From contig DNPI01000041.1 of NCBI GenBank assembly GCA_003501525.1, positions 1 through 32,507 on the forward strand: a stretch of DNA of 32,507 nt, in the 5' to 3' direction. The notes under the pieces are model-generated. The model ran no database searches, was not told the DNA's origin, and saw nothing but the letters and a program-made list of their open reading frames with translations. Position 1 is the first letter of the stretch. Every line of letters starts with the position of its first letter. Shown piece after piece: positions 2,815-23,249 of the stretch. A program made the translations under genes and the position numbers. Source of the stretch: Planctomycetota bacterium (GTDB lineage: Bacteria; Planctomycetota; UBA1135).

Positions 2815-2818
2815 TCTA

Positions 2819-3952
2819 ATGATGTTTGTTTTCTTGTCCGTTTTCATTTTTTCTGTTCAGGATCCGGGGCTCCCGGGTTATTCCATTCCGGTTATTGATA
2901 TAGATTCTGAATTTTTCAGGCATGTTGAAGTAGATCGAGAAGAGGGCCAGTATTTGGGGCATGTAACCACGGCAATGCTCGAGGATGGAAAAACTATTTT
3001 TGCTGTTTATCCGAAAGGTCATGGGAAGGGTGCCATCGTGATGAAGCGCAGTGACGATGGGGGGGAAACTTGGTCAGACCGTTTGCCGACGCCGAAATCA
3101 TGGGCGCATTCAGAGGAGGTCCCGACTCTCTACCGCACCATTGACAGGCAAGGCAAGAGGCGGTTCATCCTCTTTTCGGGCCTTAGAACCATAAAGCGGG
3201 CTTATTCAGAGGATGATGGGAAAACTTGGTCCGAACTGGAGCCCATTGGCGACTACGGAGGCATTGTTTCCTGTGCGGATATGGAAAGGACAGTCGATGG
3301 TCGATATTTTGCACTGTTTCACGACGACGGCCGATTTACGCCGTCCAAATACACTACCCAGGATGGTCACCCTTTCCACGTTTATCAGATATGGTCCGAG
3401 GACGGAGGAATGACTTGGGGAACGCCTCGCACGGTCGCTTCCCATCCGAAGGCCCATTTATGTGAGCCAGGCATTATTCGTTCTCCTGACGGGAGCCAGC
3501 TGGCAGTGCTTTTCCGTGAAAACAGCAGGAAATACAATGGTTTTGTGATGTTTTCGGATGACGAGGGGGAAGCTTGGTCTCAGCCCCGTCAACTTCCCGC
3601 TGCCCTAACCGGAGACCGCCACACAGCTCAATATGCTCCTGATGGTCGACTGTTCATCAGTTTTCGGGATACTACTCGGGAATCTATTACTCAAGGCGAT
3701 TGGGTGGGCTGGGTTGGTAGTTTTGAAGACATCGTGGATGGGCGCGAGGGCCAATACCGAATTCGACTCAAGGACAACAAGCATCGCTGGGACTGCGCAT
3801 ATCCGGGTGTAGAGATTCTCCCGGATGGCACTTTTGTTTGCACCACTTATGGGCATTGGACAGAGGGGCAGTCTCCATGGATTCTTTCGGTACGCTTTAA
3901 GCTAGACGATTTGGATGCTCTCCTTTCGTTGGCACCGCTGGACAAGAAGTGA
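2819..3952 (+). CDS. BNR/Asp-box beta-propeller protein, sialidase-like (GH33-like)
   Basis: Four Asp-boxes (S-x-D-x-G-x-[TA]-W) are present: 'SDDGGETWS', 'SEDDGKTWS', 'SEDGGMTWG', 'SDDEGEAWS'. The ATG at 2819 lies 4 nt after the upstream stop. An alternative TTG at 2789 would overlap the transporter gene. The N-terminus 'MMFVFLSVFIFSV' is hydrophobic. Confidence 0.7.
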   Translation: MMFVFLSVFIFSVQDPGLPGYSIPVIDIDSEFFRHVEVDREEGQYLGHVTTAMLEDGKTIFAVYPKGHGKGAIVMKRSDDGGETWSDRLPTPKSWAHSEEVPTLYRTIDRQGKRRFILFSGLRTIKRAYSEDDGKTWSELEPIGDYGGIVSCADMERTVDGRYFALFHDDGRFTPSKYTTQDGHPFHVYQIWSEDGGMTWGTPRTVASHPKAHLCEPGIIRSPDGSQLAVLFRENSRKYNGFVMFSDDEGEAWSQPRQLPAALTGDRHTAQYAPDGRLFISFRDTTRESITQGDWVGWVGSFEDIVDGREGQYRIRLKDNKHRWDCAYPGVEILPDGTFVCTTYGHWTEGQSPWILSVRFKLDDLDALLSLAPLDKK

Positions 3953-12338: not shown

Positions 12339-12833
12339 TTACAGGGCGGCAATACAGGCTTGTGTGATGTCTTGTGCGGGGTATCCTGCTGGAATCTCAG
12401 GAATCCGATTGGTGCTGCCCTTTTCTACGACGAGAACGCAATTGGTATTTCTCGATGCTTGTTCGAGGACTTTTTTGTAGGTGGATGTTGCTTCTCGCAT
12501 CAATTGCGCCCATCGAGCTGAACCGCGTCGGATTTTTTCTTGATTAATTGTTTGGTAAGCAGGGATAGCGAGATAAACCTTTTTGCTGTCTACTTCTGCG
12601 AGAGAGTCGCCTCGCTCAGCACTAAATCCGCTCACGCTGCCTCGGAGGATAGGGCTTCCGCCTCTCTCGTTTTCTTCGAGAATTAGGGTGGCAGCGTTTT
12701 TTTCCTTAGCCGTAGGCGCAGGTCGGCTGTCGCCCTGTCGTAACCAGAACGCTGCTGCACAAAGAGCAGCGAAGGGGACAATCGCCAGCCGCATTCGCGT
12801 ACCTGTGCTAACGGTTCTATTGAATCCAAGCAT
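12339..12833 (-). CDS. small exported protein of unknown function (weak Skp/OmpH-like resemblance)
   Basis: 164-aa ORF lying 33 nt downstream of the preceding gene in the same orientation. It has an N-terminal hydrophobic segment 'LAIVPFAALCAAAF'. The C-terminal 'VLVVEKGS...AQDITQACIAAL' loosely resembles Skp family ends. Alternative ATG at 12794. Confidence 0.35.
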   Translation of the reverse strand: MLGFNRTVSTGTRMRLAIVPFAALCAAAFWLRQGDSRPAPTAKEKNAATLILEENERGGSPILRGSVSGFSAERGDSLAEVDSKKVYLAIPAYQTINQEKIRRGSARWAQLMREATSTYKKVLEQASRNTNCVLVVEKGSTNRIPEIPAGYPAQDITQACIAAL

Positions 12834-12866
12834 TCTTTCAGCCTAGCAGATTATGAGTTGAGGAGA

Positions 12867-15542
12867 TTAAAGCGCGATATCCCGAATCCAGATATTGCGA
12901 TAGCGAACAGGGTTCCCGTGATCTTGTAGCCGGAGTGGAAGCTTGGATGGTCCTGCTTTGTATGGCAGAATTTTTCTGTGTGTGGTTGGACCGAGAATTT
13001 CGCGGTTGAAGTGGATAAGGATGCCGTTGTGGAGAGCGGTTATTCGGGCAGGCTCCAGAAGCTCTTTTCCGTTTTCTGAAAATCGAGGGGCCTTAAAAAA
13101 GATGTCATACGATTGCCATTCGCCAGGTGGCTTGGAGGCATTTACATCTGGAGGATGTTGTCCATATATCCCTCCGGCCTGACCATCTGGATATGACCGA
13201 CTAGACCAGGAATCAAGGACCTGAATCTCGTATTTCCCCATGAGGTAGACACCACTATTGCCAATGCCTTGTGACGACCCACCAGATTTTGAGGGAGTTG
13301 CGAATTCAACATGCAGTTGGCAGTCTCCGAAGTCTTGGCGAGTTTGGATGTCACCTGTTCCGTTCACTTCCATGACTCCGTCAATCAGTTTCCATTTTGC
13401 ATCGCCTCCAGAAGACGATGCCCATTTGTCCAGCCCTGTGCCGTTAAAAAGAACTATGGCGTCAGAAGGTGCCGAGGTGCCGGTCCCCGGCTGGACAAAA
13501 TTGGGACTAGGTCGCTGAGAGTCATGCACATGCCATTCGGTTCCAGGAATGAGAGGCGTGTCGCGATATCCCACCGCCGGCTGTCCTGCAGCCGGCGGGG
13601 GATCTTCTTGGAGGAGTTCGCGCACCATTGGCTCAATAGATTCCGCCCATGTTCTATAAGCACCCTCATTAAGGTGCAGTAGGTCGGGCATGACCTCCTT
13701 CGAAAGCCCTCCATTGGTGCTTAAGAAATTCGAACCAATGTCTAAGTAATGGACGCGATTTCTGGATTGAAGGCGCGAGAAAATCTCGTTTGCCCCTTCA
13801 TTTATAAGTCTGTACCGGTTTTCGGCGTTTTCTCCTCTAGGAAAAATCCCTAGGAGAAGAATTTCAGCATTAGGTAATTTTTCTAGTAGTACGGAAGTGA
13901 TTTTCTCTACGCCATTTGCGATGTCTCTGCTGGAATCGCTCCCTGCATTGTTTGTGCCAATCATTACGACAGCTAGTTCCGGGTTTATCCCGTCTAAATT
14001 CCCGTTTTGCATTCTCCAAATGACATGTTGAGTGCGATCTCCGCCAATCCCAAGATTCAATGCGTTGCGGTCCCCATAGAATTTTTCCCAAATCTCTCTT
14101 CCGGCCCCTTCCCAACCTTGAGTGATTGAATCTCCAATCATCACCATCCGTACGCCTCCTTTTGCGGCATTTTCGTTCATCTTCTTGTGTCTCGTTTGCC
14201 ACCATTCATCTTTCCGGTCTACGGGTTTAATGGTTGCAGGTGTTGCAAGTTCCCGGATGAGGACATTCCGGAATTCGATTGGGGCTCCGTGATGTTGGAG
14301 CGCAAGAGGCCCTTCACTTGCGACTCCAGGGAGTTGGGCATTTTCGATGACATTTTTCCCATTTAGAGTGACGGAGAGGCTATCCCCCTCCATTTTGATG
14401 AAAAAGCGATTCCATTTTCCTAATGGGGCGTCCGCGGCTTCGCGTGGAGTGACAGCGGCGCGGACTTCAGCGGGCATATTTGGGTCGGTTCTGTAGCCAT
14501 AGACCTCTCCGCTACCAATGGGCCAGCACCAAATATTGACTTGGCTTTTGCTACTTCCTCGGAGATAGATGCCGCTGTCTCCGGCTTCGTCTACTTCGAC
14601 TTTGAGTTGTCCGCCAGCTTCGTTGACAGCATAGTCGCCATTGGGCAGAACTACCGGGACTTCGACTTTTTTAGAGGGTCCACTCCAGCGCCAATCAGCA
14701 ATTAATTCAAAATCGCCAAAACTGTCTTCGGTCCAGAGAGTGTCGCCTTTGCCGTCGTAAGCGAGCACCCCTCCTCCTGCTTTCCAGTGCCCCTTGTTCT
14801 TCTCTTCAACTTTCCAACCATCGAGATCGATTCCTCCAAACAGTGGAACGAAGCCATTCCCTGGGATGGCAATCTCCTCGGGTTTGAGATCCCCTGAGGG
14901 AGGTAGTTCTCGAATACGCAAATTCCGAAAATGGACCTCGCTGCCCTCGGCTTCTAGGCAAAGGTGCCCTTGTCTGGGTGCGCACGCTTCGCCGCTTGTT
15001 ACTTCTTTGCCGTTAACTTCCAGGCGGAGAGTGCCGTTGTTGCAAGTAACTCGGTAATGATTCCATTCAGGAGCTGGTTTTGTGCGCTCTTCTGTGGGGA
15101 AACTTCTGGAACCGCCATTTGGTCGAGGATTGTGTGGGGTCATTTTTGCTCCCCAGATTGGAAAGACATCGCCGTGGAGCGTGTACCAATTCCCTTTAGG
15201 GCCGGTCATGATTTGAACTTCGACCGCCCGGGCGAAGGGCGTCCCTTTGGCTGGAATCCCATCTGACCATACGAATAGTCCGGCATTCCCATCCTTCTCT
15301 ATGTGTCGCCATTCCATTTCGAGGACAAAGTTTTCATAAACCTTTGTTGTTCGAAGTAGCCCAACTGGATTGCCCGTGCAGATAATCATTCCGTTTTCGA
15401 CTCGGAAGGTTGTGTCGTCACAATTCAAAAGCTCCCATCCGGAAAGATCTTTGCCATTAAAGAGAGGCTCAAAGCCGTCTTCCTGAGCAGCCAAGCAAGG
15501 GGAGCAGAAGGTTACGAAGAGGAGGGGGAGAAGGGGTTTCAT
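12867..15542 (-). CDS. secreted multidomain protein: DUF1080 - DUF1080 - SGNH/GDSL esterase (PAF-acetylhydrolase/sialate-O-acetylesterase-like) - DUF1080
   Basis: Start chosen at ATG 15542 ('MKPLLPLLFVTFCSPCLAAQ' signal peptide), which removes the overlap with the upstream gene. There are three DUF1080 units, each opening with 'LFNGKDLSGW' / 'LFGGIDLDGW' / 'LFNGTGLDKW' and closing with 'HFRNLRIREL' / 'EFRNVLIREL' / 'RYRNIWIRDI'. SGNH blocks are I 'MIGDSITQGW', II 'NLGIGGDRT', III 'MIGTNNAG' and V 'PDLLHLN'. Confidence 0.8.
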   Translation of the reverse strand: MKPLLPLLFVTFCSPCLAAQEDGFEPLFNGKDLSGWELLNCDDTTFRVENGMIICTGNPVGLLRTTKVYENFVLEMEWRHIEKDGNAGLFVWSDGIPAKGTPFARAVEVQIMTGPKGNWYTLHGDVFPIWGAKMTPHNPRPNGGSRSFPTEERTKPAPEWNHYRVTCNNGTLRLEVNGKEVTSGEACAPRQGHLCLEAEGSEVHFRNLRIRELPPSGDLKPEEIAIPGNGFVPLFGGIDLDGWKVEEKNKGHWKAGGGVLAYDGKGDTLWTEDSFGDFELIADWRWSGPSKKVEVPVVLPNGDYAVNEAGGQLKVEVDEAGDSGIYLRGSSKSQVNIWCWPIGSGEVYGYRTDPNMPAEVRAAVTPREAADAPLGKWNRFFIKMEGDSLSVTLNGKNVIENAQLPGVASEGPLALQHHGAPIEFRNVLIRELATPATIKPVDRKDEWWQTRHKKMNENAAKGGVRMVMIGDSITQGWEGAGREIWEKFYGDRNALNLGIGGDRTQHVIWRMQNGNLDGINPELAVVMIGTNNAGSDSSRDIANGVEKITSVLLEKLPNAEILLLGIFPRGENAENRYRLINEGANEIFSRLQSRNRVHYLDIGSNFLSTNGGLSKEVMPDLLHLNEGAYRTWAESIEPMVRELLQEDPPPAAGQPAVGYRDTPLIPGTEWHVHDSQRPSPNFVQPGTGTSAPSDAIVLFNGTGLDKWASSSGGDAKWKLIDGVMEVNGTGDIQTRQDFGDCQLHVEFATPSKSGGSSQGIGNSGVYLMGKYEIQVLDSWSSRSYPDGQAGGIYGQHPPDVNASKPPGEWQSYDIFFKAPRFSENGKELLEPARITALHNGILIHFNREILGPTTHRKILPYKAGPSKLPLRLQDHGNPVRYRNIWIRDIAL

Positions 15543-15556
15543 GGGTTTGAATGCTA

Positions 15557-16474
15557 CTAGTCTTTTGCACATCTGAATCCAGTGTGGTTAAGCCCAGTGT
15601 CAGGGCTTGTTTTCATGCGAGCTCCTGGACGATAGCCAGCGCAGTACAGGTCGCTACAAAGCCAGGACCCTCCACGCATTACGCGTTTTTTGATTCCTGG
15701 CTCCGATGGGTCGAAGGAATCAGTAGGGCCTTTAGGGTTTTTTACTCGGTTTGCAGTAAGAGAATATGCGTCAGGGCGATACCAATCTGCGCACCATTCC
15801 CAGACATTGCCGGCCATGTCTTGGAGGCCCCAACCATTGGCGGGAAAACTTCCCACTGGAGCAGTCCCACTGAAGCCGTCAGTCTTTTTGTCTTTTGAGG
15901 GGAATTCGCCTTGCCATATGTTTGCATACCACTTGCCTCCAGGGTTTTCTTCATTTCCCCAAGTCCAAGGGGCTTTTTCCAGTCCCCCGCGGGCGGCGAA
16001 TTCCCATTCTGCTTCGGTTGGCAATCGTTTTCCTGCCCAGCGCGAAAAAGCGATGGCGTCGTCCCACGAGACGTGGACAACCGGATGATCCATCCTGCCC
16101 TTTAGTGAACTATTAGGCCCTTCTGGATGTTTCCAATTGGAACCTGTTGTCCAACCCCACCAGCTGCCAGGGCCATCCTCGAGTTGCTCCGCACCTAGAA
16201 ACACCACCGATCCGGGGTCATTGGAGGAGAAAGGGATTTCGGCTGTGGTGAGATAGCCCGTGTCGTCAACAAATTTTTGAAATTGAGCGTTAGTGACTTC
16301 TGTCTGGTCCATCCAGAATCCGGAGACGGTTATTTCTCGAGCAGGGAACTCGTCAGGTTGAGCATGAAGGCTGTCTCCTCCCATGGTGAAGGTTCCACCG
16401 GGAATCCAAATCATTCCCTCTGGTTCTCCGCAGGAAACTAGCAGAATCAGGGCAATGCCCTTGACTCGCCTCAT
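15557..16474 (-). CDS. formylglycine-generating enzyme (FGE/SUMF1 family), predicted lipoprotein
   Basis: Lipobox 'LLVSC'. FGE-sulfatase domain motifs 'HPVVHVSWDDAIAFSRWAGKRLPTEAEWEFAARGG' and 'GNVWEWCADWY' are present. The catalytic copper-binding Cys pair is conserved in 'RGGSWLCSDLYCAGYRPGAR' (C273 at 15656-15658, C278 at 15641-15643). The start overlaps the upstream stop (ATGA on the minus strand). Confidence 0.8.
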   Translation of the reverse strand: MRRVKGIALILLVSCGEPEGMIWIPGGTFTMGGDSLHAQPDEFPAREITVSGFWMDQTEVTNAQFQKFVDDTGYLTTAEIPFSSNDPGSVVFLGAEQLEDGPGSWWGWTTGSNWKHPEGPNSSLKGRMDHPVVHVSWDDAIAFSRWAGKRLPTEAEWEFAARGGLEKAPWTWGNEENPGGKWYANIWQGEFPSKDKKTDGFSGTAPVGSFPANGWGLQDMAGNVWEWCADWYRPDAYSLTANRVKNPKGPTDSFDPSEPGIKKRVMRGGSWLCSDLYCAGYRPGARMKTSPDTGLNHTGFRCAKD

Positions 16475-16932
16475 CCGTCTTCTGTAAATCGCTCGTGCCC
16501 AGCGTCTTCCATTGCTTTAAGGGCATCGTAAGCGGCCTTAGCGGAATCCCGGTCATTTTCGAGCAAGCCCATCTCTAGCTTGAGAAGTTCCTGCTGTGTG
16601 AGAATCATTAGCTTGCGGTAATCGAGGACAAACTCATCGCGCCCTTCTTTTGGGATTGCATCAACCATGGGCGGTGGGATTAATTTCCCTTCGGCGACAG
16701 CTTTTTGCATTTCAACGATGACATCAAGACTTGCGGCGTCTTTTTCTGGATCCTTCAAACTCCTTCGTAGAGATCGCATGCCTCTTTTGAGCACGAGCAT
16801 TCTCTCTTCTAATGGCCCGACTTCCTCTTCTTGAGCCGGTTCTTGAATCGGTTGTGATGCCGGGCCCTCTGGAGACAGAGAGAGCAGGAATAAGATTAGG
16901 AGGAGAGGGCTATAGATAATTAGAACTTTCAT
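16471..16932 (-). CDS. secreted cytochrome b562-like four-helix-bundle protein (putative haem protein)
   Basis: Signal peptide 'MKVLIIYSPLLLILFLLSLS'. The mature part aligns by eye with E. coli cytochrome b562: 'LEERMLVLKRGMRSL' vs 'LEDNMETLNDNLKVI' (axial Met, 16798-16800) and 'LKAMEDAGHERF' vs 'LKTTRNAYHQKY' (axial His, 16495-16497). Confidence 0.5.
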   Translation of the reverse strand: MKVLIIYSPLLLILFLLSLSPEGPASQPIQEPAQEEEVGPLEERMLVLKRGMRSLRRSLKDPEKDAASLDVIVEMQKAVAEGKLIPPPMVDAIPKEGRDEFVLDYRKLMILTQQELLKLEMGLLENDRDSAKAAYDALKAMEDAGHERFTEDG

Positions 16933-16935
16933 AGT

Positions 16936-18276
16936 TCAAAGGACAAGCGTTTGTCCGGGTACTGGGATTGAATATCGGCCATCCGCGTCTGGGAGGGTCG
17001 GAGGAGGTGCGTCCCATGCATACTTTTCAGGTGCGAGAGACACCTCGGAAGCCATTGCATCATCCCAGTTGATAGCTTTGCCTGAATAAGTTGCGAGACG
17101 ACCAAGTATTGCGGTCATGGTGCTTTCAGCGCCATATTTTGTTTCATTGAATGGCCTATCTTCTCTAATGGATCGAAATAATTCGTTGTGTTCTACTTGG
17201 TAGGGGTCGGGTTCTTCGCCGCGGAATTTCCATTTTTCACCTTGGCTGCCCCAGAAGTTTTTCCGTTTAAAAACTTCAATTGCGCCTGAATTAACTGAAG
17301 CACGCCCTTTGGTGCCTTCAACATGCTCAGACACGCTTGACCAACAACCAGGGATGTGGCGGCATTGACTAAACATCCGAGTGCCGTCTGCGTATTCATA
17401 CTCAACGGCATGGTGGTCAAAAATTTCACCGTGGTCTATCCCGTTACGGGATTCTCTCCCTCCCATGCCGAGAGCTCTTACAGGATGTTCACCGTGAATC
17501 CAGTTGCACACATCTAGGTTGTGAATGTGTTGTTCGACAATGTGATCGCCGCAAAGCCAGTTGAAGTAGTACCAGTTCCGCATTTGATACTCCATTTCGG
17601 ATTGCCCTTCTTGGCGCCCTCTAACCCAAACTCCAGACCCATTCCAGTATGCCCGGTAGGCGCGGACATCGCCGATGACGCCGTCATGAATTCTCCGAAT
17701 GGTTTCGAGATAGCGAGCTTGGTGGTGTCTTTGGAGCCCCACTCCCACCTTTAGTCCTTTGCGCGTGGCTTCTTCACCGGCGGCGAGGACTTTCCGGATT
17801 CCTGGAGCGTCCACGGCAACCGGCTTCTCCATAAATACGTGTTTTCCTTGTGCAATGGCATGTTCGAAGTGAATAGGACGGAAGCCAGGCGGCGTAGCAA
17901 GAATGACGAGGTCAACTCCTGCTGCGATTGCTTTTTCATAGGCATCAAATCCCGTAAACCTTCTTTCTTCGGGAACCTTTACGGTTTCCGGGTGATTGTT
18001 TTTGAGATGCTGCAGAGTCCCTTCCAGTCGGTCGCTGAAAGCATCTGCCATGGCGACTAGCTCTACGTTACCTGTTGTCGACAAAGCTTGATTAGCCGCG
18101 CCAGCTCCTCTTCCTCCACATCCCACGAGGGCAACTCGAATAACGTCGTCACCGTGGGCGTTGGCCGGTCGAATAGCGTCAATGGCCTTGCCGACGGTTG
18201 GGATTGCTAGGGTCCCGCCAACAACGACGGCGGATTGTTTAACAAAAGTGCGACGAGAGGTTGAGTGATGATTCAT
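16936..18276 (-). CDS. Tat-exported Gfo/Idh/MocA-family NAD(P)-dependent oxidoreductase
   Basis: Twin-arginine signal 'SRRTFVK' (18238-18258). Rossmann motif 'VALVGCGGRGAGAA', then 'ATPPGFRPIHFEHAIAQGKHVFMEKPVA', typical of the family. 446 aa. Confidence 0.85.
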   Translation of the reverse strand: MNHHSTSRRTFVKQSAVVVGGTLAIPTVGKAIDAIRPANAHGDDVIRVALVGCGGRGAGAANQALSTTGNVELVAMADAFSDRLEGTLQHLKNNHPETVKVPEERRFTGFDAYEKAIAAGVDLVILATPPGFRPIHFEHAIAQGKHVFMEKPVAVDAPGIRKVLAAGEEATRKGLKVGVGLQRHHQARYLETIRRIHDGVIGDVRAYRAYWNGSGVWVRGRQEGQSEMEYQMRNWYYFNWLCGDHIVEQHIHNLDVCNWIHGEHPVRALGMGGRESRNGIDHGEIFDHHAVEYEYADGTRMFSQCRHIPGCWSSVSEHVEGTKGRASVNSGAIEVFKRKNFWGSQGEKWKFRGEEPDPYQVEHNELFRSIREDRPFNETKYGAESTMTAILGRLATYSGKAINWDDAMASEVSLAPEKYAWDAPPPTLPDADGRYSIPVPGQTLVL

Positions 18277-18278
18277 TT

Positions 18279-19409
18279 TTAGCGTTCTCCTTGGCGTTGG
18301 CCGGATTCCACACGGCGGATGTCATCGAGGTCGGCTTCCCAGTATTGCGCCCATTTGTCTTCATGGGGAGGGGAAAAAGGTCGCACTACGCGGAATCCAA
18401 CGAAGGGCGCGTCGGTTAAGTACCAAATGCTTTTGGGCAATTGCGGATCTTGCACCTTCCATCCTTTCTTGGAGGGTGTTCGAGCTGCTGAGCGGAGACG
18501 ATCGGGATCGTCGTCCCAAGAACCACCTCGTACAACTCGAGGGTAAAGAGATTTAGGCCACGCAACTGGATTGTCGGCTGTTTTTAAAAAAGTTTTTGTG
18601 TCCTGCGGCTCGATGAAAGTGGCATAGAAATCCTTATCCCACTCATCCAGAACCCATTCTGAGACATTCCCATGCATATCAAAGAGCCCCCAGGGATTAG
18701 GTTTGAGCTGGCCAACCTTTTGGTATGCATCGTCCGCGTTGTCGAAGTACCACGCATATTCATCAATCGCTTCTGAGTCGTTACCGAAGGACCATGCCGT
18801 TGTTGTTCCAGCTCGGCAGGCATATTCCCATTCGGCCTCTGTTGGCAATCGATAAAACCTTCCCGTCTTCATAGTTAGCCACTTTGTGTATTGCTTGGCA
18901 GCAAATTGGGTCATGCATGCGGCGGGGAAGCCTTCCACTCCCATTCCGAAGTCCATGGGTAAATAAGGTGGCGTTGGTCGGCTGACAGCATCGGCCCAAG
19001 GGTCTTGTGGATTTGCTTCGTAATTTTCTCCTCGTCGAGTGATGTCGAGGGAGAATTGGAATTCTTGATACTCGTCCCAAGTGACTTCGTGCGTTCCCAT
19101 CCAAAAAGGATCAACCTCTACGTTGTGAACAGGCCCTTCTTCTTTTTTACGGTCTTTCTCATCTGGCGGGCTACCCATTCGGAAGGTTCCACTTGGGATA
19201 GGGGTCATTCCAAAGCTGATTAAAGTGCCGGGAATGCTTTCTTTATAAGCCGCCATATCTTCAGGGCTTTCTGCCTGTGCATTAAGGTTCTCAGCGGATG
19301 GAGCAATACCTGGAGGTGAGTCAGGCTTCCCTCGCTCTTGTGCCCAAAGGGGGCTCCCACTGCCCAGGAGAGAAAGTCCTAGGATGGAAGGAAGAATGTT
19401 CCGTAGCAT
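18279..19409 (-). CDS. secreted FGE-sulfatase (SUMF1/DUF323)-fold protein lacking the catalytic cysteine pair
   Basis: Signal peptide 'MLRNILPSILGLSLLGSGSPLWAQ'. FGE-fold motifs 'FWMGTHEVTWDEYQEF', 'YRLPTEAEWEYACRAGT' and 'HGNVSEWVLDEW' are present. The region equivalent to the FGE active site reads 'RGGSWDDDPDRLRSAAR' and has no Cys. Confidence 0.7.
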   Translation of the reverse strand: MLRNILPSILGLSLLGSGSPLWAQERGKPDSPPGIAPSAENLNAQAESPEDMAAYKESIPGTLISFGMTPIPSGTFRMGSPPDEKDRKKEEGPVHNVEVDPFWMGTHEVTWDEYQEFQFSLDITRRGENYEANPQDPWADAVSRPTPPYLPMDFGMGVEGFPAACMTQFAAKQYTKWLTMKTGRFYRLPTEAEWEYACRAGTTTAWSFGNDSEAIDEYAWYFDNADDAYQKVGQLKPNPWGLFDMHGNVSEWVLDEWDKDFYATFIEPQDTKTFLKTADNPVAWPKSLYPRVVRGGSWDDDPDRLRSAARTPSKKGWKVQDPQLPKSIWYLTDAPFVGFRVVRPFSPPHEDKWAQYWEADLDDIRRVESGQRQGER

Positions 19410-19410
19410 T

Positions 19411-20376
19411 ATGAATCGGCGATGGACGCAAGTCCTTGGGTTAGGAATATTAGCCGCCTTTTCCTGTAAGGCCGGGAGTCCTAGTGAGAGGTTTGAATTT
19501 GAGAAACCGGGTATGGGGACTTTATTTAGAATTTCCCTCTACGCTCAGGACTTCGAAACGGCACGCAGCGCAGCTGAGCGAGCGTTTACCCGCATGCAGC
19601 ATCTTGAGAGAGAGCTTAGTGACTGGGATGCCGATAGCGCGGTCCGGAAACTCCCCTTCGCAGGAGGTCGGGTTAATGTTTCTCAGGATCTATGGGACAT
19701 TCTTTTTCTGTCTATTCGAGTCGCCGAGGCGACGAAGGGTGCCTTTGATCCAACAGTCGGCCCGGTGGTGAAGTTGTGGCGCCGCGCTAGTCGCCAACAA
19801 AAATTACCCGCGACAGAGGATATCGAGGCCGCATTGGAAGCCGTAGGTTGGGGACACATGGATTTAATCGATGAAACGGAGATTAATCTAGGAGTCCCGG
19901 GTATGAGGTTGGATTTTGGTGGCATAGGGAAAGGATTCGCACTTGATGCAATGCTCGGCGTTTTGGGAGAAGAAGGCATCGCGTCAGCACTTGTTGATGG
20001 AGGCGGAGATGTCGCAGTATCTAACCCGCCGCCAGGACAGCAAGGTTGGCGGGTGGCCATCGAATCACCACCTTGGTATTCAGGGGAGCAGCTGCGCCTT
20101 CTCCTTGCGAACCAAGCGATTGCATCCTCGGGTACCCGTTTCCGGAAATTTCAAGTAGACGGCCGTACGTGGTCTCACTTGCTGGATCCACGCACAGGCA
20201 TGGCTCTGGATTATGACATTCAAGCGACTGCTCTTGCCCCTTCAGGTGCACTCGCGGACTCCTTAGCTTCTGCAGCATGTGTTTTAGGGCCTGAGGGGTG
20301 GCAGAATAATTCTCTAGCTTCCAAATGGAGAGGGGTGAAAACTTGGTGGTTTCACCCTGATGAGGCTCTGGAGTGA
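19411..20376 (+). CDS. apbE: FAD:protein FMN transferase (ApbE family), predicted lipoprotein
   Basis: Lipobox 'LAAFSC'. ApbE motifs 'AFDPTVGPVVKLW', 'LDFGGIGKGFALD' and 'ASSGTRFRKF...WSHLLDPRTG' are present. In-frame upstream ATGs at 19384 and 19396 are alternative starts; they would overlap the divergent gene. Confidence 0.85.
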   Translation: MNRRWTQVLGLGILAAFSCKAGSPSERFEFEKPGMGTLFRISLYAQDFETARSAAERAFTRMQHLERELSDWDADSAVRKLPFAGGRVNVSQDLWDILFLSIRVAEATKGAFDPTVGPVVKLWRRASRQQKLPATEDIEAALEAVGWGHMDLIDETEINLGVPGMRLDFGGIGKGFALDAMLGVLGEEGIASALVDGGGDVAVSNPPPGQQGWRVAIESPPWYSGEQLRLLLANQAIASSGTRFRKFQVDGRTWSHLLDPRTGMALDYDIQATALAPSGALADSLASAACVLGPEGWQNNSLASKWRGVKTWWFHPDEALE

Positions 20377-20403: not shown

Positions 20404-21693
20404 ATGACTAGAAAAAATCCCATTTCTCCTAATCCCACCCGCCGAGAATTCTTGCGAAAGAGTAGTGCCGTTGCCGCTGCAACTGCCCTGCCTTTGAAAG
20501 GGGTGGGTTTTCATAATTCCGTTGACGATGTCCTGAAAGTAGGCCTCGTGGGTTGCGGAGGACGAGGGACGGGTGCTGCAGCGAATGCATTGCGTGCCGA
20601 TGCCGCTACGCGTCTCGTGGCTATGGGCGATGCTTTTGCGAATCGTGTTGAGTCTAGCCTTGCTGGGCTTCAAGGAAGCGCTGGTATCGCTGAGCAAGTT
20701 GATGTCCCGCGAGAGCGTCGTTTCTTGGGTTTTGACGCGTATCAACGGGTTATTGAAGAGAGTGATGTAGTTCTTCTTGCAACCCCTCCTCACTTCCGCC
20801 CGCTTCATGTCGAAGCAGCGGTCTCTGCGGGAAAGCATCTTTTCGTAGAGAAACCGGTAGCGGTCGATGCTCCTGGAATCCGTCGAGTGATGGATGCTTG
20901 TAGAGCGGCTGCCGATAAGGGGCTCAGTCTTGTTTCGGGGCTTTGTTACAGGTATCAATTCGCAAAGCAGGAGACCATAAAACGCATTCACGGCGGCGCA
21001 ATCGGTGACCTCGTGAGTCTTCAGTGCTCATACAACACAGGGGGTCTTTGGCACCATGGACGCAAACCAGAATGGAGCGATATGGAGTATCAAGTCCGAA
21101 ACTGGCTTTATTTCAACTGGCTTAGCGGTGACCACATCAACGAACAGCACATTCATAGCCTCGACAAAGTTCTCTGGGCAATGGGAGATGAAACGCCATC
21201 GAAGGTAACGGCGAGCGGGGGACGCATTTCTCGCATCGATGACAAGTACGGCGATATTTATGACCACTTCAATACTGTTTACCAATGGGACAGTGGGGTG
21301 AAAGCTTTCAGCTCTTGCCGACAAATTGTTGGTGCGAGTTCAGATGTCTCTGACTTTGCTCACGGGACTGAGGGGACTGCCGAGATTCAATCTCATCGCA
21401 TTAAAGGAGCGAATGCTTGGCGATGGAGAGGAGATGGCCCAGATGATATGTATCAAAATGAGCATGATGCCCTGTTCAAGAGCATTCGTGCGGGAGCTGC
21501 CGTCAACAATGGAGACTATATGTGCAAATCGACCATGATGGCGATTGCCGCTCGAATGTCTGCTTATACAGGGAGATCTTTGTCTTGGGATGAAGCCATG
21601 AAATCGCAGGAGGACCTCACCCCGGTGGCCTATGTTTGGGGTGATGCACCTGCAATTCGTATCCCACGCCCTGGTGTGACTCCTTTTGTTTAA
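20404..21693 (+). CDS. Tat-exported Gfo/Idh/MocA-family NAD(P)-dependent oxidoreductase (paralogue of 16936-18276)
   Basis: Twin-arginine signal 'TRREFLR' (20437-20457). 'VGLVGCGGRGTGAA' and 'ATPPHFRPLHVEAAVSAGKHLFVEKPVAVDAPGIR' are present. It is collinear with the other copy through 'MEYQVRNWLYFNWLSGDHINEQHIHSLD' vs 'MEYQMRNWYYFNWLCGDHIVEQHIHNLD'. Confidence 0.85.
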   Translation: MTRKNPISPNPTRREFLRKSSAVAAATALPLKGVGFHNSVDDVLKVGLVGCGGRGTGAAANALRADAATRLVAMGDAFANRVESSLAGLQGSAGIAEQVDVPRERRFLGFDAYQRVIEESDVVLLATPPHFRPLHVEAAVSAGKHLFVEKPVAVDAPGIRRVMDACRAAADKGLSLVSGLCYRYQFAKQETIKRIHGGAIGDLVSLQCSYNTGGLWHHGRKPEWSDMEYQVRNWLYFNWLSGDHINEQHIHSLDKVLWAMGDETPSKVTASGGRISRIDDKYGDIYDHFNTVYQWDSGVKAFSSCRQIVGASSDVSDFAHGTEGTAEIQSHRIKGANAWRWRGDGPDDMYQNEHDALFKSIRAGAAVNNGDYMCKSTMMAIAARMSAYTGRSLSWDEAMKSQEDLTPVAYVWGDAPAIRIPRPGVTPFV

Positions 21694-21701
21694 ATCGTTC
21701 C

Positions 21702-23249
21702 TTGCGGATTAAGCGATTTACTGTGCATATGCTTTGGCTTTGCTTGCTGGCTATTGGCTCGTTGTCATGCGATTCAAACTTGGAAGCTGTGCAATCACCA
21801 TCCGCTCCAAATATTGTTTTAGTGGTTGCAGATGACCTCGGTTGGGGGGAGCTCGGGAGCTATGGGCAAACAAAAATTAAGACTCCCAATCTTGACCGTT
21901 TAGCCGCTGAAGGTATTCGATTCACCGATTTTTACTCTGGTAGTCCAGTTTGTGCTCCATCTCGGTGCGTATTGCTGACTGGTCTACATACGGGTAATGC
22001 TTATATTCGCAGAAATGACGAAACCGCAGAACGGGGGGATGTGTGGAACGACCCAGCCTTAGAGGGGCAGCGACCAATTCCTCCCGAAACGTTGACATTG
22101 GCAGAGGTCCTTAAGGACGAGGGCTACGCCACTGCTGCGATTGGGAAATGGGGCTTAGGCTGGCCGGGTTCAACGGGCGACCCCAATTTCCAGGGATTCG
22201 ATTTGTTCTACGGGTACAACTGTCAGCGAGTGGCCCACAACTATTACCCCACCCATATGTGGCGTAACCAGGAAAAAGAACTTTTGGATAATCCAGCTTT
22301 CCGGGCGCGTAACAAATTGCCGAAAGATGCTAATCCAAGCGATCCAGCTTCTTATGCCGCCTATAAAGGTAAAGACTATGCGCCTGATTTCATGGTTAAA
22401 GAGGCCGAAGGGTTTATGCGGACTAGTGCTTCTGAGGGAGCTCCTTTTTTCTTGTATTACCCTTCCCCTATTCCTCACTTGGCTTTGCAAATTCCGGATG
22501 AAGAGCTAGAGGCTTATGAAGGTGAATGGGAAGAAAAACCTTATGTCGGCGGGAAGGGATATTTGCCTCACCCGAAACCGCGTGCCGCTTATGCTGCGAT
22601 GATTACTCGCCTTGATCGAGAAGTCGGGGTCTTGATGGATACTTTGGATGATCTGGATTTGACGGACAACACTCTCTTTGTGTTCACCTCGGACAATGGC
22701 GCTTCGTGGATAGGAGGCGTTGATCTTAATTTCTTTGATAGTTCTGGTGGTTTGCGTGGACGCAAGGCTCAATTGCATGAAGGTGGTATTCGCGTCCCGA
22801 TGATTGCGAGATGGCCCGGGCATATTAAGCCGAACTCGGTCACTCCTTTTGTTGCCGGCTTCCAAGATTTAATGCCGACTATCAGTAGAGCGGTGGCACC
22901 ACGGAAACCGCTGCCTGAGCGCTTGGACGGCATATCTCTTCTTTCGGTGTTACGGGGCCAGGAAGTCGATTTAATACGTTCCACTCCTTTGTATTGGGAG
23001 TACCAGAACCGTCGAGCTCTTCGGAGGGGTGAGTGGAAAATCTATCAATCTGGCCCAAGGCAGCCCTGGCACCTTTATAACCTCAAGGAAGACACTTCTG
23101 AATCTAATGATGTCGCGAAGGAACATCCCGAGTTGTTGCGTGGCTTAATCGCGGAAGCGAATTCAACACGCTCTCCGTCAGAGCTCTATCCGCTCAAGGG
23201 GGTGGATGTTCCCGTTGAGGCCCGTGAGGCTGAAGGGAAGGTTCGCTAG
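21702..23249 (+). CDS. Cys-type (formylglycine-dependent) sulfatase, family S1, predicted lipoprotein
   Basis: Lipobox 'GSLSC'. 'VVADDLGWGELGSYG' is present. The FGly signature 'SPVCAPSRCVLLTGLH' has its C-A-P-S-R core at 21951-21965. 'FTSDNGAS' is also present. TTG start 8 nt after the upstream stop; GTG 21723 and ATG 21729 are alternatives. Confidence 0.85.
   Translation: MRIKRFTVHMLWLCLLAIGSLSCDSNLEAVQSPSAPNIVLVVADDLGWGELGSYGQTKIKTPNLDRLAAEGIRFTDFYSGSPVCAPSRCVLLTGLHTGNAYIRRNDETAERGDVWNDPALEGQRPIPPETLTLAEVLKDEGYATAAIGKWGLGWPGSTGDPNFQGFDLFYGYNCQRVAHNYYPTHMWRNQEKELLDNPAFRARNKLPKDANPSDPASYAAYKGKDYAPDFMVKEAEGFMRTSASEGAPFFLYYPSPIPHLALQIPDEELEAYEGEWEEKPYVGGKGYLPHPKPRAAYAAMITRLDREVGVLMDTLDDLDLTDNTLFVFTSDNGASWIGGVDLNFFDSSGGLRGRKAQLHEGGIRVPMIARWPGHIKPNSVTPFVAGFQDLMPTISRAVAPRKPLPERLDGISLLSVLRGQEVDLIRSTPLYWEYQNRRALRRGEWKIYQSGPRQPWHLYNLKEDTSESNDVAKEHPELLRGLIAEANSTRSPSELYPLKGVDVPVEAREAEGKVR

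Follow-up and report, generated by a model that had tools for sequence, protein, structure and literature searches.

What a set of genes that encode only exported proteins might accomplish together is the question raised by the 32,507-nucleotide stretch of marine Planctomycetota DNA analysed here (hereafter, the window). Between positions 12339 and 19409, its minus strand carries six closely spaced genes (g1 to g6) that a sequence-only reading took for a single operon and interpreted in two ways: as a periplasmic module for oxidative glycoside cleavage with a cytochrome b562-like protein as electron outlet (reading A), or as an electron-supply chain for a copper-dependent formylglycine-generating enzyme, or FGE (reading B). 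These genes and their divergently oriented neighbours are as follows:

g1: 18279-19409, minus strand, 376 aa; Cys-less FGE-fold protein, PvdO-like, with an export-type N-terminus
g2: 16936-18276, minus strand, 446 aa; Tat-type Gfo/Idh/MocA NAD(P) oxidoreductase
g3: 16471-16932, minus strand, 153 aa; cytochrome b562-family four-helix bundle with an export-type N-terminus
g4: 15557-16474, minus strand, 305 aa; genuine copper-type FGE, lipoprotein
g5: 12867-15572 (first ATG) or 12867-15542 (Met11), minus strand; DUF1080-DUF1080-SGNH esterase-DUF1080
g6: 12339-12833, minus strand, 164 aa; small exported or membrane-anchored protein
ApbE: 19384-20376, start probably at 19411, plus strand; FAD:protein FMN transferase (PF02424), lipoprotein
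Second oxidoreductase: 20404-21693, plus strand; Tat-type Gfo/Idh/MocA enzyme, g2 paralogue
Sulfatase: 21702-23249, plus strand; Cys-type (PF00884, E 2e-53), with a C-A-P-S-R motif identified in the translation

Layout and conservation of the locus

The open reading frame coordinates bear out the six minus-strand genes and their reported junctions, with 2 and 3 nt separating g1, g2, and g3, a 4-nt ATGA overlap between the g3 stop and the g4 start, and 33 nt between g5 and g6. The 14 nt reported between g4 and g5 hold if g5 starts at 15542, the start at 15572 yielding instead a 16-nt overlap; in locus L001 the gene caller places 224 nt between these two genes. Taken from their first ATGs, g1 and ApbE would overlap by 26 nt, which makes an error in one of these two starts probable; with ApbE starting at 19411, the divergent genes lie roughly 1 nt apart. 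Scans for consensus promoters and terminators returned nothing exceeding shuffled expectation. The assigned domains proved right by Pfam and profile matches, and export-type N-termini, as judged by eye, are present on all six products: Sec-type in g1, g3, and g5, Tat-type in g2, a lipoprotein signal in g4, and a single N-terminal hydrophobic segment, either signal peptide or membrane anchor, in g6.

Gene order is conserved at two different depths. The complete six-gene order, together with the opposite-strand ApbE, second Gfo/Idh/MocA, and sulfatase genes, is kept in L001 and L004 (g1 77-79% identical), which argues against a chance grouping, and the core formed by g1, g2, and g3 extends more widely, but the six genes do not recur as a single unit. 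The presumed operon is hence a composite. Its conserved core comprises the Cys-less FGE-fold protein, the Tat Gfo/Idh/MocA enzyme, and b562, in this order, with ApbE and a second Tat Gfo/Idh/MocA enzyme, both left out of the sequence-only finding, encoded divergently. The b562 gene was found directly after the g1-oxidoreductase pair in 11 Planctomycetota loci and directly after g1, with no intervening oxidoreductase, in three more (L005, L007, and L013), with varying downstream genes in these 14 loci. The alignment serving as b562 locus query (A3) is narrower than the one employed for residue conservation (A2) and biased towards the GHERFT subfamily.

The association between g1 and the oxidoreductase reaches further than b562. 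Among 32 orthologue loci, 22 have a Tat oxidoreductase gene as the immediate downstream neighbour of g1, versus none of 20 paralogue loci, and b562 is found in none of the 26 metagenome g1-oxidoreductase loci with enough flanking sequence. The g1-Tat oxidoreductase combination, often accompanied by ApbE, is thus an old and widespread gene pair, which b562 joined in one Planctomycetota clade. Its absence from most g1-oxidoreductase loci indicates that b562 is not needed for the basic function of the pair. Nine other loci feature a Tat-signal TIM barrel (PF01261) beside the pair, whereas no such protein is found among the window ORFs scanned, and esterases or a sulfatase follow the module in L009, L010, L037, and L053, neighbours that connect the pair to carbohydrates. 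DUF1080, Gfo/Idh/MocA, and sulfatase families appear abundant in the Planctomycetota, and some of these adjacencies may therefore be due to chance. None of the papers in the literature library searched connects FGE-fold proteins with Gfo/Idh/MocA enzymes, or b562 with Planctomycetota metabolism, and for the core module, widespread as it is, no counterpart that has been characterised was found.

A cytochrome b562 relative with conserved ligands

The g3 product scores 18.6 bits against the Pfam Cytochrom_B562 model (PF07361), below its gathering score of 30, but some members of its family, which comprises 1,177 representatives after clustering at 50%, reach 34.8-68.9 bits. Across 60 diverse homologues (27-68% identity; alignment A2), M45, E120, and H146 are the only invariant columns, and M45 and H146 align with Met7 and His102, the haem ligands of E. 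coli b562. The family profile matches the PDB sequence of E. coli b562 over its entire length (E 2.7e-4), and an AlphaFold model derived from a deep alignment (pLDDT 88.9, versus only 61 with a shallow one) predicts helices at residues 40-58, 62-82, 95-124, and 128-149. Searched with Foldseek against the PDB, this model matches b562 with a TM-score of 0.85 and an rmsd of 2.4 Å, and all 50 matches listed are b562, engineered b562 derivatives, or b562 fusion constructs. The cytochrome b562-like assignment made from the bare sequence is borne out by these invariant residues and by the profile and fold matches, which make g3 a genuine relative of b562 whose predicted haem ligands are Met45 and His146.

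Like g3, E. coli cytochrome b562 (CybC; 256B) is exported and forms a bundle of four helices spanning about 105 residues. In both proteins the aligned Met is found early in helix 1 and the aligned His late in helix 4, and neither contains a CxxCH motif, suggesting that the haem would be b-type. The two proteins are only about 19% identical, and g3 differs further from CybC in its conserved gene context with dehydrogenases. We know of no established partner for E. coli b562. Members of the family are linked to membrane cytochromes in P0135, L105, and L106; the contigs of the distant members P0151, P0125, and P0154 are too short for an informative gene context.

A second genomic association ties b562 to DUF1080. 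The g5 product harbors three PF06439 (DUF1080) stretches (E 2e-110, 367 bits) and an intact SGNH/GDSL esterase domain (PF13472, E 5e-23) with GDS and DxxH motifs; its structure-database matches are 4qhz, 8tda/8rr2, and PAF-AH Ib. No family match was obtained for g6 itself, yet homologues in L001, L004, L014/L015, and L107 define a conserved family following DUF1080 genes, and the L107 homologue displays weak, below-threshold similarity to OmpH/Skp-like proteins (PF03938, E 5e-5). Three different gene arrangements bring DUF1080 and g6-type proteins together with b562. A b562::DUF1080 fusion (P0139) occurs inside the same module, and as the one case found it counts as a single Rosetta-stone event. 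In L107 some 5 kb separate a b562 gene from a DUF1080 gene on the same strand, and the gene run to which both belong also encodes a multihaem cytochrome c, the g6 homologue, and a ThuA-type dehydrogenase. Genomic context thus connects b562 with the oxidoreductase pair, through 14 loci, and with DUF1080, through one fusion and two other arrangements. ThuA-domain proteins are encoded near the related loci L014 and L107.

Two Tat oxidoreductases and a Cys-less FGE-fold protein

The g2 product combines the N- and C-terminal domains of Gfo/Idh/MocA enzymes (PF01408 and PF02894) and displays a twin-arginine motif (SRRTFVK), a Rossmann loop (GCGGRG), and an EKP motif; the twin-arginine motif is present in 42 of 45 orthologues. 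It shows weak matches to sugar/inositol dehydrogenases and glycoside 3-dehydrogenases, and its best match among solved structures is 5A02 (E 1.6e-10). Against the model for BT2158-type glycoside 3-dehydrogenases (NF058561, cut-off 750), g2 and its paralogue score 45 and 32 bits, both below threshold and over an alignment restricted to the N-terminal half, and g2 is, by this measure, a distant relative of BT2158. The second oxidoreductase is 46% identical to g2, carries a TRREFLRK motif, and adjoins ApbE in L001, L004, L006-L011, L013, L018, and L019, occurring without ApbE in L014.

The g1 product matches PF03781 (E 5e-41) and is 30% identical to g4, but its alignment to FGE is confined to the central core. 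At the site of the FGE Cys pair it reads RGGSWDDDPDRLRSAAR, with an invariant W-D-D-D-P-D in place of the two cysteines and D299 and D301 invariant in orthologues. Since the copper-binding Cys pair is missing, g1 is not an FGE, and the database name "formylglycine-generating enzyme" given to g1-type FGE-fold proteins is almost certainly wrong. At least 7,990 clusters at the 90% level contain g1 homologues, the best 120 of which share 59-77% identity with it over most of its length, and no other member of the core is as well conserved as g1, which shows about 60% identity where b562 shows 35-47%. In the orthologue alignment and motif searches, g1 has neither a conserved Cys pair nor a His cluster, and a flavinylation motif is likewise missing.

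The closest solved structure to g1 is PvdO (5hha, E 2e-24), a periplasmic protein of pyoverdine maturation that, like g1, is exported and adopts the FGE fold without the catalytic cysteines. The match to the NCBIfam PvdO model (NF051459) reaches 115 bits, below the equivalog cut-off of 500, and g1 differs from PvdO in its own invariant insert, WKVQDPQLPKSIWYLTDA, in its acidic W-D-D-D-P-D loop, and in its gene context. To our knowledge, the chemistry of PvdO is itself unsettled.

ApbE is a frequent companion of g1, adjoining it in varying gene orders in 14 of the 33 loci with full flanks. The window ApbE (PF02424, E 1e-64, 219 bits) matches FmnB (7esa, E 2e-33) and retains the catalytic His motif, its "shlldprtg" segment aligning to "hhildpktg". 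As in the extracytosolic electron-transfer systems served by ApbE (PMC8238504; PMC11334425; PMC12052999), a periplasmic lipoprotein ApbE is encoded beside exported redox proteins; unlike in those systems, no neighbour carries the D-x-x-[S/T]-G-A-[S/T] motif. The strict form of this motif (D-x-x-[ST]-G-A-[ST]) was not found within 6 kb of ApbE in 22 loci, and no window module protein contains even [ST]G[AS][ST]; any flavin bridge in this system is hence a conjecture. A "GAS" loop in the second oxidoreductase was discarded as a flavinylation site because it is not conserved. The terms Gfo, FGE, and b562 are likewise absent from the main text of two flavinylation surveys (PMC8238504; PMC11334425).

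The true FGE and its probable sulfatase client

Unlike g1, g4 carries the copper-binding Cys pair, as C-x4-C after RGGS, and an LVSC lipobox. Its matches to PF03781 (E 4e-85) and to human SUMF1 (E 7e-84), the latter aligning both catalytic cysteines ("swlcsdlyc" to "sfmchrsyc"), identify it as a genuine copper-type FGE. It is also a lineage-specific addition to the core module: the succession of b562 and a true FGE is confined to the window and its closest relatives (L001/L004), the remaining 12 module loci with b562 lack a true FGE altogether, and just one of the 33 full-flank loci encodes one. The presence of a sulfatase in the divergent operon provides a simpler explanation for this FGE, as the maturase of that sulfatase, and the Cys-type sulfatase at 21702-23249 is its probable client.

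Comparison with characterised sugar-oxidation systems

The nearest functional precedents are the BT2156-2160 and AL1-5 systems of Bacteroides and Alistipes, in which a Tat-exported Gfo/Idh/MocA glycoside 3-dehydrogenase with tightly bound NAD works with a DUF1080 protein that acts as 3-keto-glucoside 1,2-lyase and hydratase (PMC8121099; bioRxiv 10.1101/2024.03.25.586180). This activity contradicts the keto-glycoside hydrolase role assigned to DUF1080 in the sequence-only reading. For BT2158/AL3 the cycle has been shown to be redox-neutral, and cytochromes have been suggested as possible cofactor re-oxidants, periplasmic re-oxidation being an acknowledged open point (bioRxiv 10.1101/2024.03.25.586180). 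The locus shares with these systems a periplasmic Tat-type Gfo/Idh/MocA enzyme, its NAD presumed to be tightly bound, and an exported DUF1080 protein, and the xylose-isomerase-like TIM barrel of BT2156/AL1 has a Tat-exported counterpart in b562-less relatives of the module. The window itself, by contrast, encodes no TIM-barrel lyase and no SusR-type regulator, its oxidoreductases are both Tat-type with no cytosolic AL4-like enzyme, and its DUF1080 domain is triplicated and fused to an SGNH esterase. Furthermore, the Cys-less FGE-fold protein, ApbE, and cytochrome b562 have no counterpart in BT2156-2160/AL1-5. The sequence-only statement that no characterised system has this composition is therefore valid for these added parts, but not for the central pairing.

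Other precedents bear on the fate of the electrons. Zymomonas glucose-fructose oxidoreductase and Caulobacter aldose-aldose oxidoreductase (5A02) are, like g2, Tat-exported Gfo/Idh/MocA enzymes and carry their own nicotinamide cofactor, as g2 is presumed to do, but they recycle it with a second sugar, whereas the genes for a haem protein and a flavin transferase that accompany g2 suggest an external electron path. Cytochrome-coupled periplasmic oxidation of glycosides to 3-keto-glycosides, as proposed for the locus, is known from LacABC and ThuAB, and the Gfo/Idh/MocA protein ThuB has an accessory subunit (PMC8121099), as g2 would have in g1. In the locus, however, the accessory protein has the FGE fold instead of the ThuA fold, and the cytochrome is b562-type instead of c-type. 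Reading A is partly supported, in outline, as is its cytochrome component, given the conserved ligands, the 14 loci, and the DUF1080 ties; the cluster as a single unit, the hydrolase, and complete novelty are not, and g2 is far from BT2158.

A model for the locus and its alternatives

Although still short of an even chance in our estimate, we tentatively regard the cluster as a composite periplasmic carbohydrate-oxidation locus, and neither as a single invented pathway nor as a support system for FGE. In this model, the Tat-exported oxidoreductases, using tightly bound nicotinamide, would convert a sugar or glycoside hydroxyl into a keto group in the periplasm, and the DUF1080 domains would carry out elimination and hydration of the activated keto-glycoside, a Tat-exported TIM-barrel keto-sugar isomerase-like enzyme taking their place in b562-less lineages. 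The SGNH domain would strip acyl groups, and the sulfatase matured by g4 would strip sulfate. The cycle would not be redox-neutral as in Bacteroides: b562 would relay electrons one at a time, with the dehydrogenase unit at one end and membrane or c-type cytochromes at the other, and would most likely be the outlet to respiration. A flavin supplied or installed by ApbE may bridge two-electron hydride chemistry and one-electron haem, with g1 as an obligate partner acting as a substrate-binding or electron-transfer adaptor. The more specific proposal that the FGE-fold protein, the Tat Gfo/Idh/MocA enzyme, ApbE, and b562 constitute a new periplasmic dehydrogenase complex, passing hydride to an ApbE-dependent flavin (possibly on g1, at a non-canonical site), then to haem b562 and the respiratory chain, is a speculative one that we consider somewhat unlikely.

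The alternatives differ in which protein is placed at the center of the redox chemistry. The proximity of PvdO to g1, and its NCBI name, dihydropyoverdine dehydrogenase, allow by analogy for g1 to be a redox enzyme in its own right and b562 its partner, with b562 and an ApbE-dependent flavin carrying the electrons and the Gfo/Idh/MocA enzymes acting at an earlier or later step instead of donating electrons to b562. Such an arrangement would suit the three loci in which b562 directly follows g1, the persistence of ApbE beside g1 through several rearrangements, and the standing of g1 as the most conserved protein of the module. Yet it must contend with the lack in g1 of the redox-associated features sought, with an analogue whose own chemistry is not known to be settled, and with the presence of the second oxidoreductase in loci without g2, and we deem it unlikely. 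A role for b562 that is unrelated or regulatory is implied if the two oxidoreductases, as in the cycle demonstrated for BT2158/AL3 (bioRxiv 10.1101/2024.03.25.586180), oxidise the glycoside and re-reduce the keto-sugar. The conservation of two paralogous oxidoreductases and the lack of b562 in most g1-oxidoreductase loci are in line with this Bacteroides-type cycle, but b562 has kept its place right behind the pair despite sequence divergence of 35-68%, and this and the b562::DUF1080 fusion both argue for a functional tie, making the redox-neutral alternative rather improbable.

Two further alternatives revolve around sulfatase maturation. We know of no established physiological reductant for FGE, and the ATGA overlap of g3 and g4, present in the window and in L001/L004, together with the nearby Cys-type sulfatase, lends some appeal to reading B, in which the Tat oxidoreductase and b562 would deliver reductant to the copper-dependent g4. 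The distribution of true FGEs among module loci speaks against this proposal, the oxidoreductase pair is found elsewhere with keto-sugar enzymes, and the radical-SAM gene that follows b562 in L017 and L018 encodes an RlmN-type rRNA methyltransferase, ruling it out as an anaerobic sulfatase maturase; reading B is thus very improbable. Equally poor prospects, if not poorer, attend a sulfatase-linked core, in which g1 might bind the sulfatase motif and generate or repair formylglycine with the NAD dehydrogenase, or in which the pair acts on sulfated sugars around desulfation. Its appeal lies in the ApbE::sulfatase fusion proteins of L017 and L018 and in sulfatase genes, which the window, L001, and L004 carry in the divergent operon and L019, L034, and L053 close to the module. 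Sulfatases are, however, very abundant in these genomes and present in only five of the 33 full-flank module loci, the similarity of g1 to FGE does not extend beyond the central core, and the module partners in other lineages are keto-sugar TIM barrels instead of sulfatases.

Implications for periplasmic glycan oxidation

The oxidative, non-Koshland route of glycoside cleavage, in which Tat-exported NAD enzymes work with DUF1080 proteins, has been described only recently, and the re-oxidation of the periplasmic cofactor constitutes a gap in that scheme. The locus provides a concrete candidate re-oxidant in a b562-type protein with conserved ligands that follows the dehydrogenase in 11 of 14 loci and is once fused to DUF1080. 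Furthermore, it brings to light a very abundant pair, a Cys-less FGE-fold protein and a Tat oxidoreductase, often with ApbE, for which no description was found. If the dehydrogenase complex outlined above were to exist, it would provide a member of the cytochrome b562 family with a physiological partner and role, show the FGE fold put to a new use, non-catalytic or flavin-carrying, and define a respiratory, energy-yielding version of the keto-glycoside pathway. Marine Planctomycetota degrade sulfated and acetylated algal glycans, and the module could tie the breakdown of these glycans directly to respiration.

Composition of the gene cluster

The window originates from a marine Planctomycetota metagenome-assembled genome (MAG), and its g3 product is identical to NCBI DDW23_01750. 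The domain assignments that the sequence-only reading made for the six-gene cluster are borne out by Pfam and NCBIfam; the export signals of the products were assigned by eye.

Genes of the cluster
18279-19409, minus strand: g1, 376 aa, FGE-fold protein (PF03781, E 5e-41) lacking the FGE cysteines
16936-18276, minus strand: g2, 446 aa, Gfo/Idh/MocA enzyme with twin-arginine motif SRRTFVK
16471-16932, minus strand: g3, 153 aa, cytochrome b562-like protein
15557-16474, minus strand: g4, 305 aa, FGE (PF03781, E 4e-85) with a lipobox
12867-15572 or 12867-15542, minus strand: g5, 901 or 891 aa, DUF1080 (PF06439) in three stretches plus a GDSL/SGNH domain
12339-12833, minus strand: g6, 164 aa, small protein whose N-terminus may be a signal peptide or a membrane anchor

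Genes g1 and g2 are 2 nt apart, g2 and g3 3 nt; g3 and g4 overlap by 4 nt (ATGA), g5 begins 14 nt after g4 if its internal start is used, and 33 nt separate g5 from g6. If first ATGs are taken as starts, g1 (19409, minus strand) and the divergent ApbE gene (19384, plus strand) share 26 nt. An ApbE start at 19411 (MNRRWTQVLGLGILAAFSC, a lipobox) is more plausible and leaves a spacing of about 1 nt, so that the g1 and ApbE promoters would each lie within the opposite gene; the corresponding gap in relatives is 34-83 nt.

The two FGE-fold proteins share only 30% identity. By its sequence, g4 is a genuine formylglycine-generating enzyme (FGE), matching human SUMF1 (E 7e-84), and the two catalytic cysteines coincide in that alignment. 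The g1 protein, whose nearest solved structure is PvdO (E 2e-24), is not an FGE; it carries an invariant acidic loop in place of the FGE copper site, together with a family-specific invariant insert. Its Cys-less orthologues number in the thousands, under database names that include "SUMF1/EgtB/PvdO family nonheme iron enzyme", and the formylglycine-generating-enzyme name is very unlikely to be correct for them, because the catalytic cysteines are missing.

The cytochrome b562-like protein

Taken alone, g3 scores 18.6 bits against a Pfam b562 threshold of 30, and a word-indexed search recovers only close relatives. Searching 1.8 billion cluster representatives with a profile brought in 1,177 relatives with E ≤ 1e-3, 380 of them with E ≤ 1e-10; almost all are 140-175 residues long. 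Several family members exceed the Pfam threshold (34.8-68.9 bits), and the family profile aligns with E. coli b562 over its whole length (E 2.7e-4). When 60 relatives (27-68% identical to g3) are aligned, Met45, Glu120 and His146 are the sole invariant columns, and the invariant Met and His align with Met7 and His102 of E. coli b562. The AlphaFold model built from a deep alignment is a confident four-helix bundle (pLDDT 88.9) that superimposes on b562 structures with a TM of 0.85 and an rmsd of 2.4 Å; the 50 PDB matches listed by Foldseek are b562, engineered derivatives or b562 fusion constructs. Alignment and model thus assign g3 the predicted fold and ligands of a cytochrome b562. We infer that it binds haem, and any haem would be b-type, since g3 contains no CxxCH motif. 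Glu120 (window about 16573-16575), the one invariant residue beyond the two haem ligands, has no conserved equivalent in E. coli b562; it might contact a haem propionate or serve in docking a partner.

More distant b562 relatives occur alone or beside c-type or membrane cytochromes (loci L104-L106 and protein P0135), which fits a general electron-carrier role. In P0135 (792 aa), L105 (8001-10408) and L106 (6814-8507), the b562 domain is fused to or encoded beside such cytochromes, with a DUF2231-like membrane domain, PSCyt1 and LRR, or a Cytochrome_CBB3-like domain, suggesting a destination for b562 electrons.

Conservation of gene order

A b562-motif search identified ten loci (L004-L013), all in Planctomycetota MAGs, and individual proteins added L001, L014, L017 and L018; all were annotated with the window proteins. 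Gene order up to b562 is conserved in these 14 loci: b562 directly follows g1-oxidoreductase in 11 and g1 itself in L005, L007 and L013, and most have a divergently transcribed ApbE and a further Tat oxidoreductase that shares 46% identity with g2. Conservation does not extend to the genes 3' of b562, which vary (HAD hydrolase, SASA esterase, thioredoxin-like protein, RlmN); a true FGE holds this place in L001 and L004 alone, which are the window's nearest relatives.

A metagenome scan seeded with g1 separated orthologue-grade loci (≥175 bits) from other FGE-family paralogues, which served as a built-in control. Where at least 1 kb of downstream sequence was available, a Tat oxidoreductase lay immediately downstream in 22 of 32 orthologue loci (and upstream in 3 more) against 0 of 20 paralogue loci; ApbE was present in 10/50 and 0/30 of all loci, respectively. 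The twin-arginine motif is found in 42 of 45 oxidoreductase orthologues, and b562 in none of the 26 metagenome g1 loci with enough downstream sequence.

Gene content of full-flank loci (n=33)
At least one oxidoreductase: 28
ApbE: 14
b562, L014 fusion included: 10
DUF1080: 5
Sulfatase: 5
True FGE: 1

The orthologue-paralogue contrast and the absence of b562 from those 26 loci identify g1 plus the Tat oxidoreductase, often with ApbE, as the oldest unit; b562 is a clade-specific addition to this pair.

Companion genes

The association of b562 with DUF1080 is seen three times: in the window, in a b562::DUF1080 fusion within the otherwise typical L014 module (a single case), and in L107/L108. The genes of the latter lie in a row on one strand and encode, in this order, b562, a thioredoxin-like protein, a protein homologous to the window 1326-aa ORF, one DUF1080, a multihaem cytochrome c, a protein homologous to the window 602-aa ORF, a homologue of g6, and GSDH-ThuA. 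A g6 homologue also lies directly 3' of the L014 fusion gene. Taken together, these ties make g5 and g6 recurrent b562 companions, not orphans. Window genes with relatives in the distant L107 hint at a functional set larger than the six-gene cluster.

Window genes with relatives in L107
23246-27226: 1326-aa ORF with reprolysin-like M12, F5/8 type C and LamG domains; homologue at L107 3083-6949
9327-11135: 602-aa ORF with weak squalene-cyclase-like repeats; homologue at L107 9962-11758
28374-29879: GSDH gene; L107 12385-14786 is a larger protein (GSDH-ThuA) with the same Pfam domain, unmatched by phmmer with the window protein

Tat-signal xylose-isomerase-like TIM barrels of one orthologous group flank the g1-oxidoreductase pair in nine loci, all without b562 (L029, L036, L037, L040, L044, L052, L056, L057, L067). 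They resemble hydroxypyruvate isomerase, 2-oxo-tetronate isomerase and keto-sugar epimerases, and suggest that TIM-barrel and b562 lineages handle the keto product or reduced cofactor in alternative ways. Esterases or a sulfatase lie 3' of the pair in other loci.

The window ApbE appears catalytically normal, no neighbour protein carries its flavinylation motif, and a flavin step through ApbE is conjectural. In the window, ApbE and the Cys-type sulfatase are separate genes of one operon; in L017 (676-2994) and L018 (4539-6917) they form one continuous ORF (772-792 aa, C-A-P-T-R motif). The only ApbE fusions found in the literature join ApbE to its own flavinylation target. Elsewhere in the window (334-3952), a sodium:solute symporter with a NanM-like Kelch domain of the sialate mutarotase type fused at its N-terminus is followed by a BNR/sialidase-like gene, in what looks like a sialic-acid-type uptake module.

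A proposed model for oxidative glycoside processing

Two roles had been proposed for the cluster: electron supply to the FGE, and periplasmic oxidative glycoside processing with b562 as electron outlet. The former does not survive the comparison of loci: a true FGE follows b562 only in L001 and L004, and just 1 of 33 full-flank loci contains one. The core pairing of the latter has a characterized precedent, absent from the sequence-only reading, in the Bacteroides BT2156-2160 and Alistipes AL1-5 systems. There, the Tat-exported Gfo/Idh/MocA enzyme holds its NAD tightly and produces a 3-keto-glycoside, and DUF1080 proteins act as lyase and hydratase (PMC8121099; bioRxiv 10.1101/2024.03.25.586180), not as the 3-keto hydrolase that had been envisaged. 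Nevertheless, g2 is not an equivalog of BT2158 (45 bits vs 750), and the window locus, unlike the Bacteroides system, has no TIM-barrel lyase. Weak matches of g2 include sugar and inositol dehydrogenases, Caulobacter aldose-aldose oxidoreductase, DgpA and glucuronide 3-dehydrogenase.

The window locus most likely represents a Planctomycete variant of this oxidative glycoside chemistry. The Tat oxidoreductases would oxidize a sugar or glycoside, the DUF1080 domains would cleave the product, the SGNH domain would de-acylate it, the Cys-type sulfatase encoded nearby, once matured by g4, would desulfate it, and b562 would connect the system to the respiratory chain by one-electron transfer; apart from the domain identities and the synteny, we infer every mechanistic step. 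We found no literature that connects FGE-fold proteins to Gfo/Idh/MocA enzymes or b562 to such metabolism. The individual parts of the cluster are ordinary. The claim that no characterized system has this composition appears to stand for the conserved g1-oxidoreductase-ApbE set and its b562 extension, for which no characterized counterpart was found, and which make the question of cofactor recycling directly testable.
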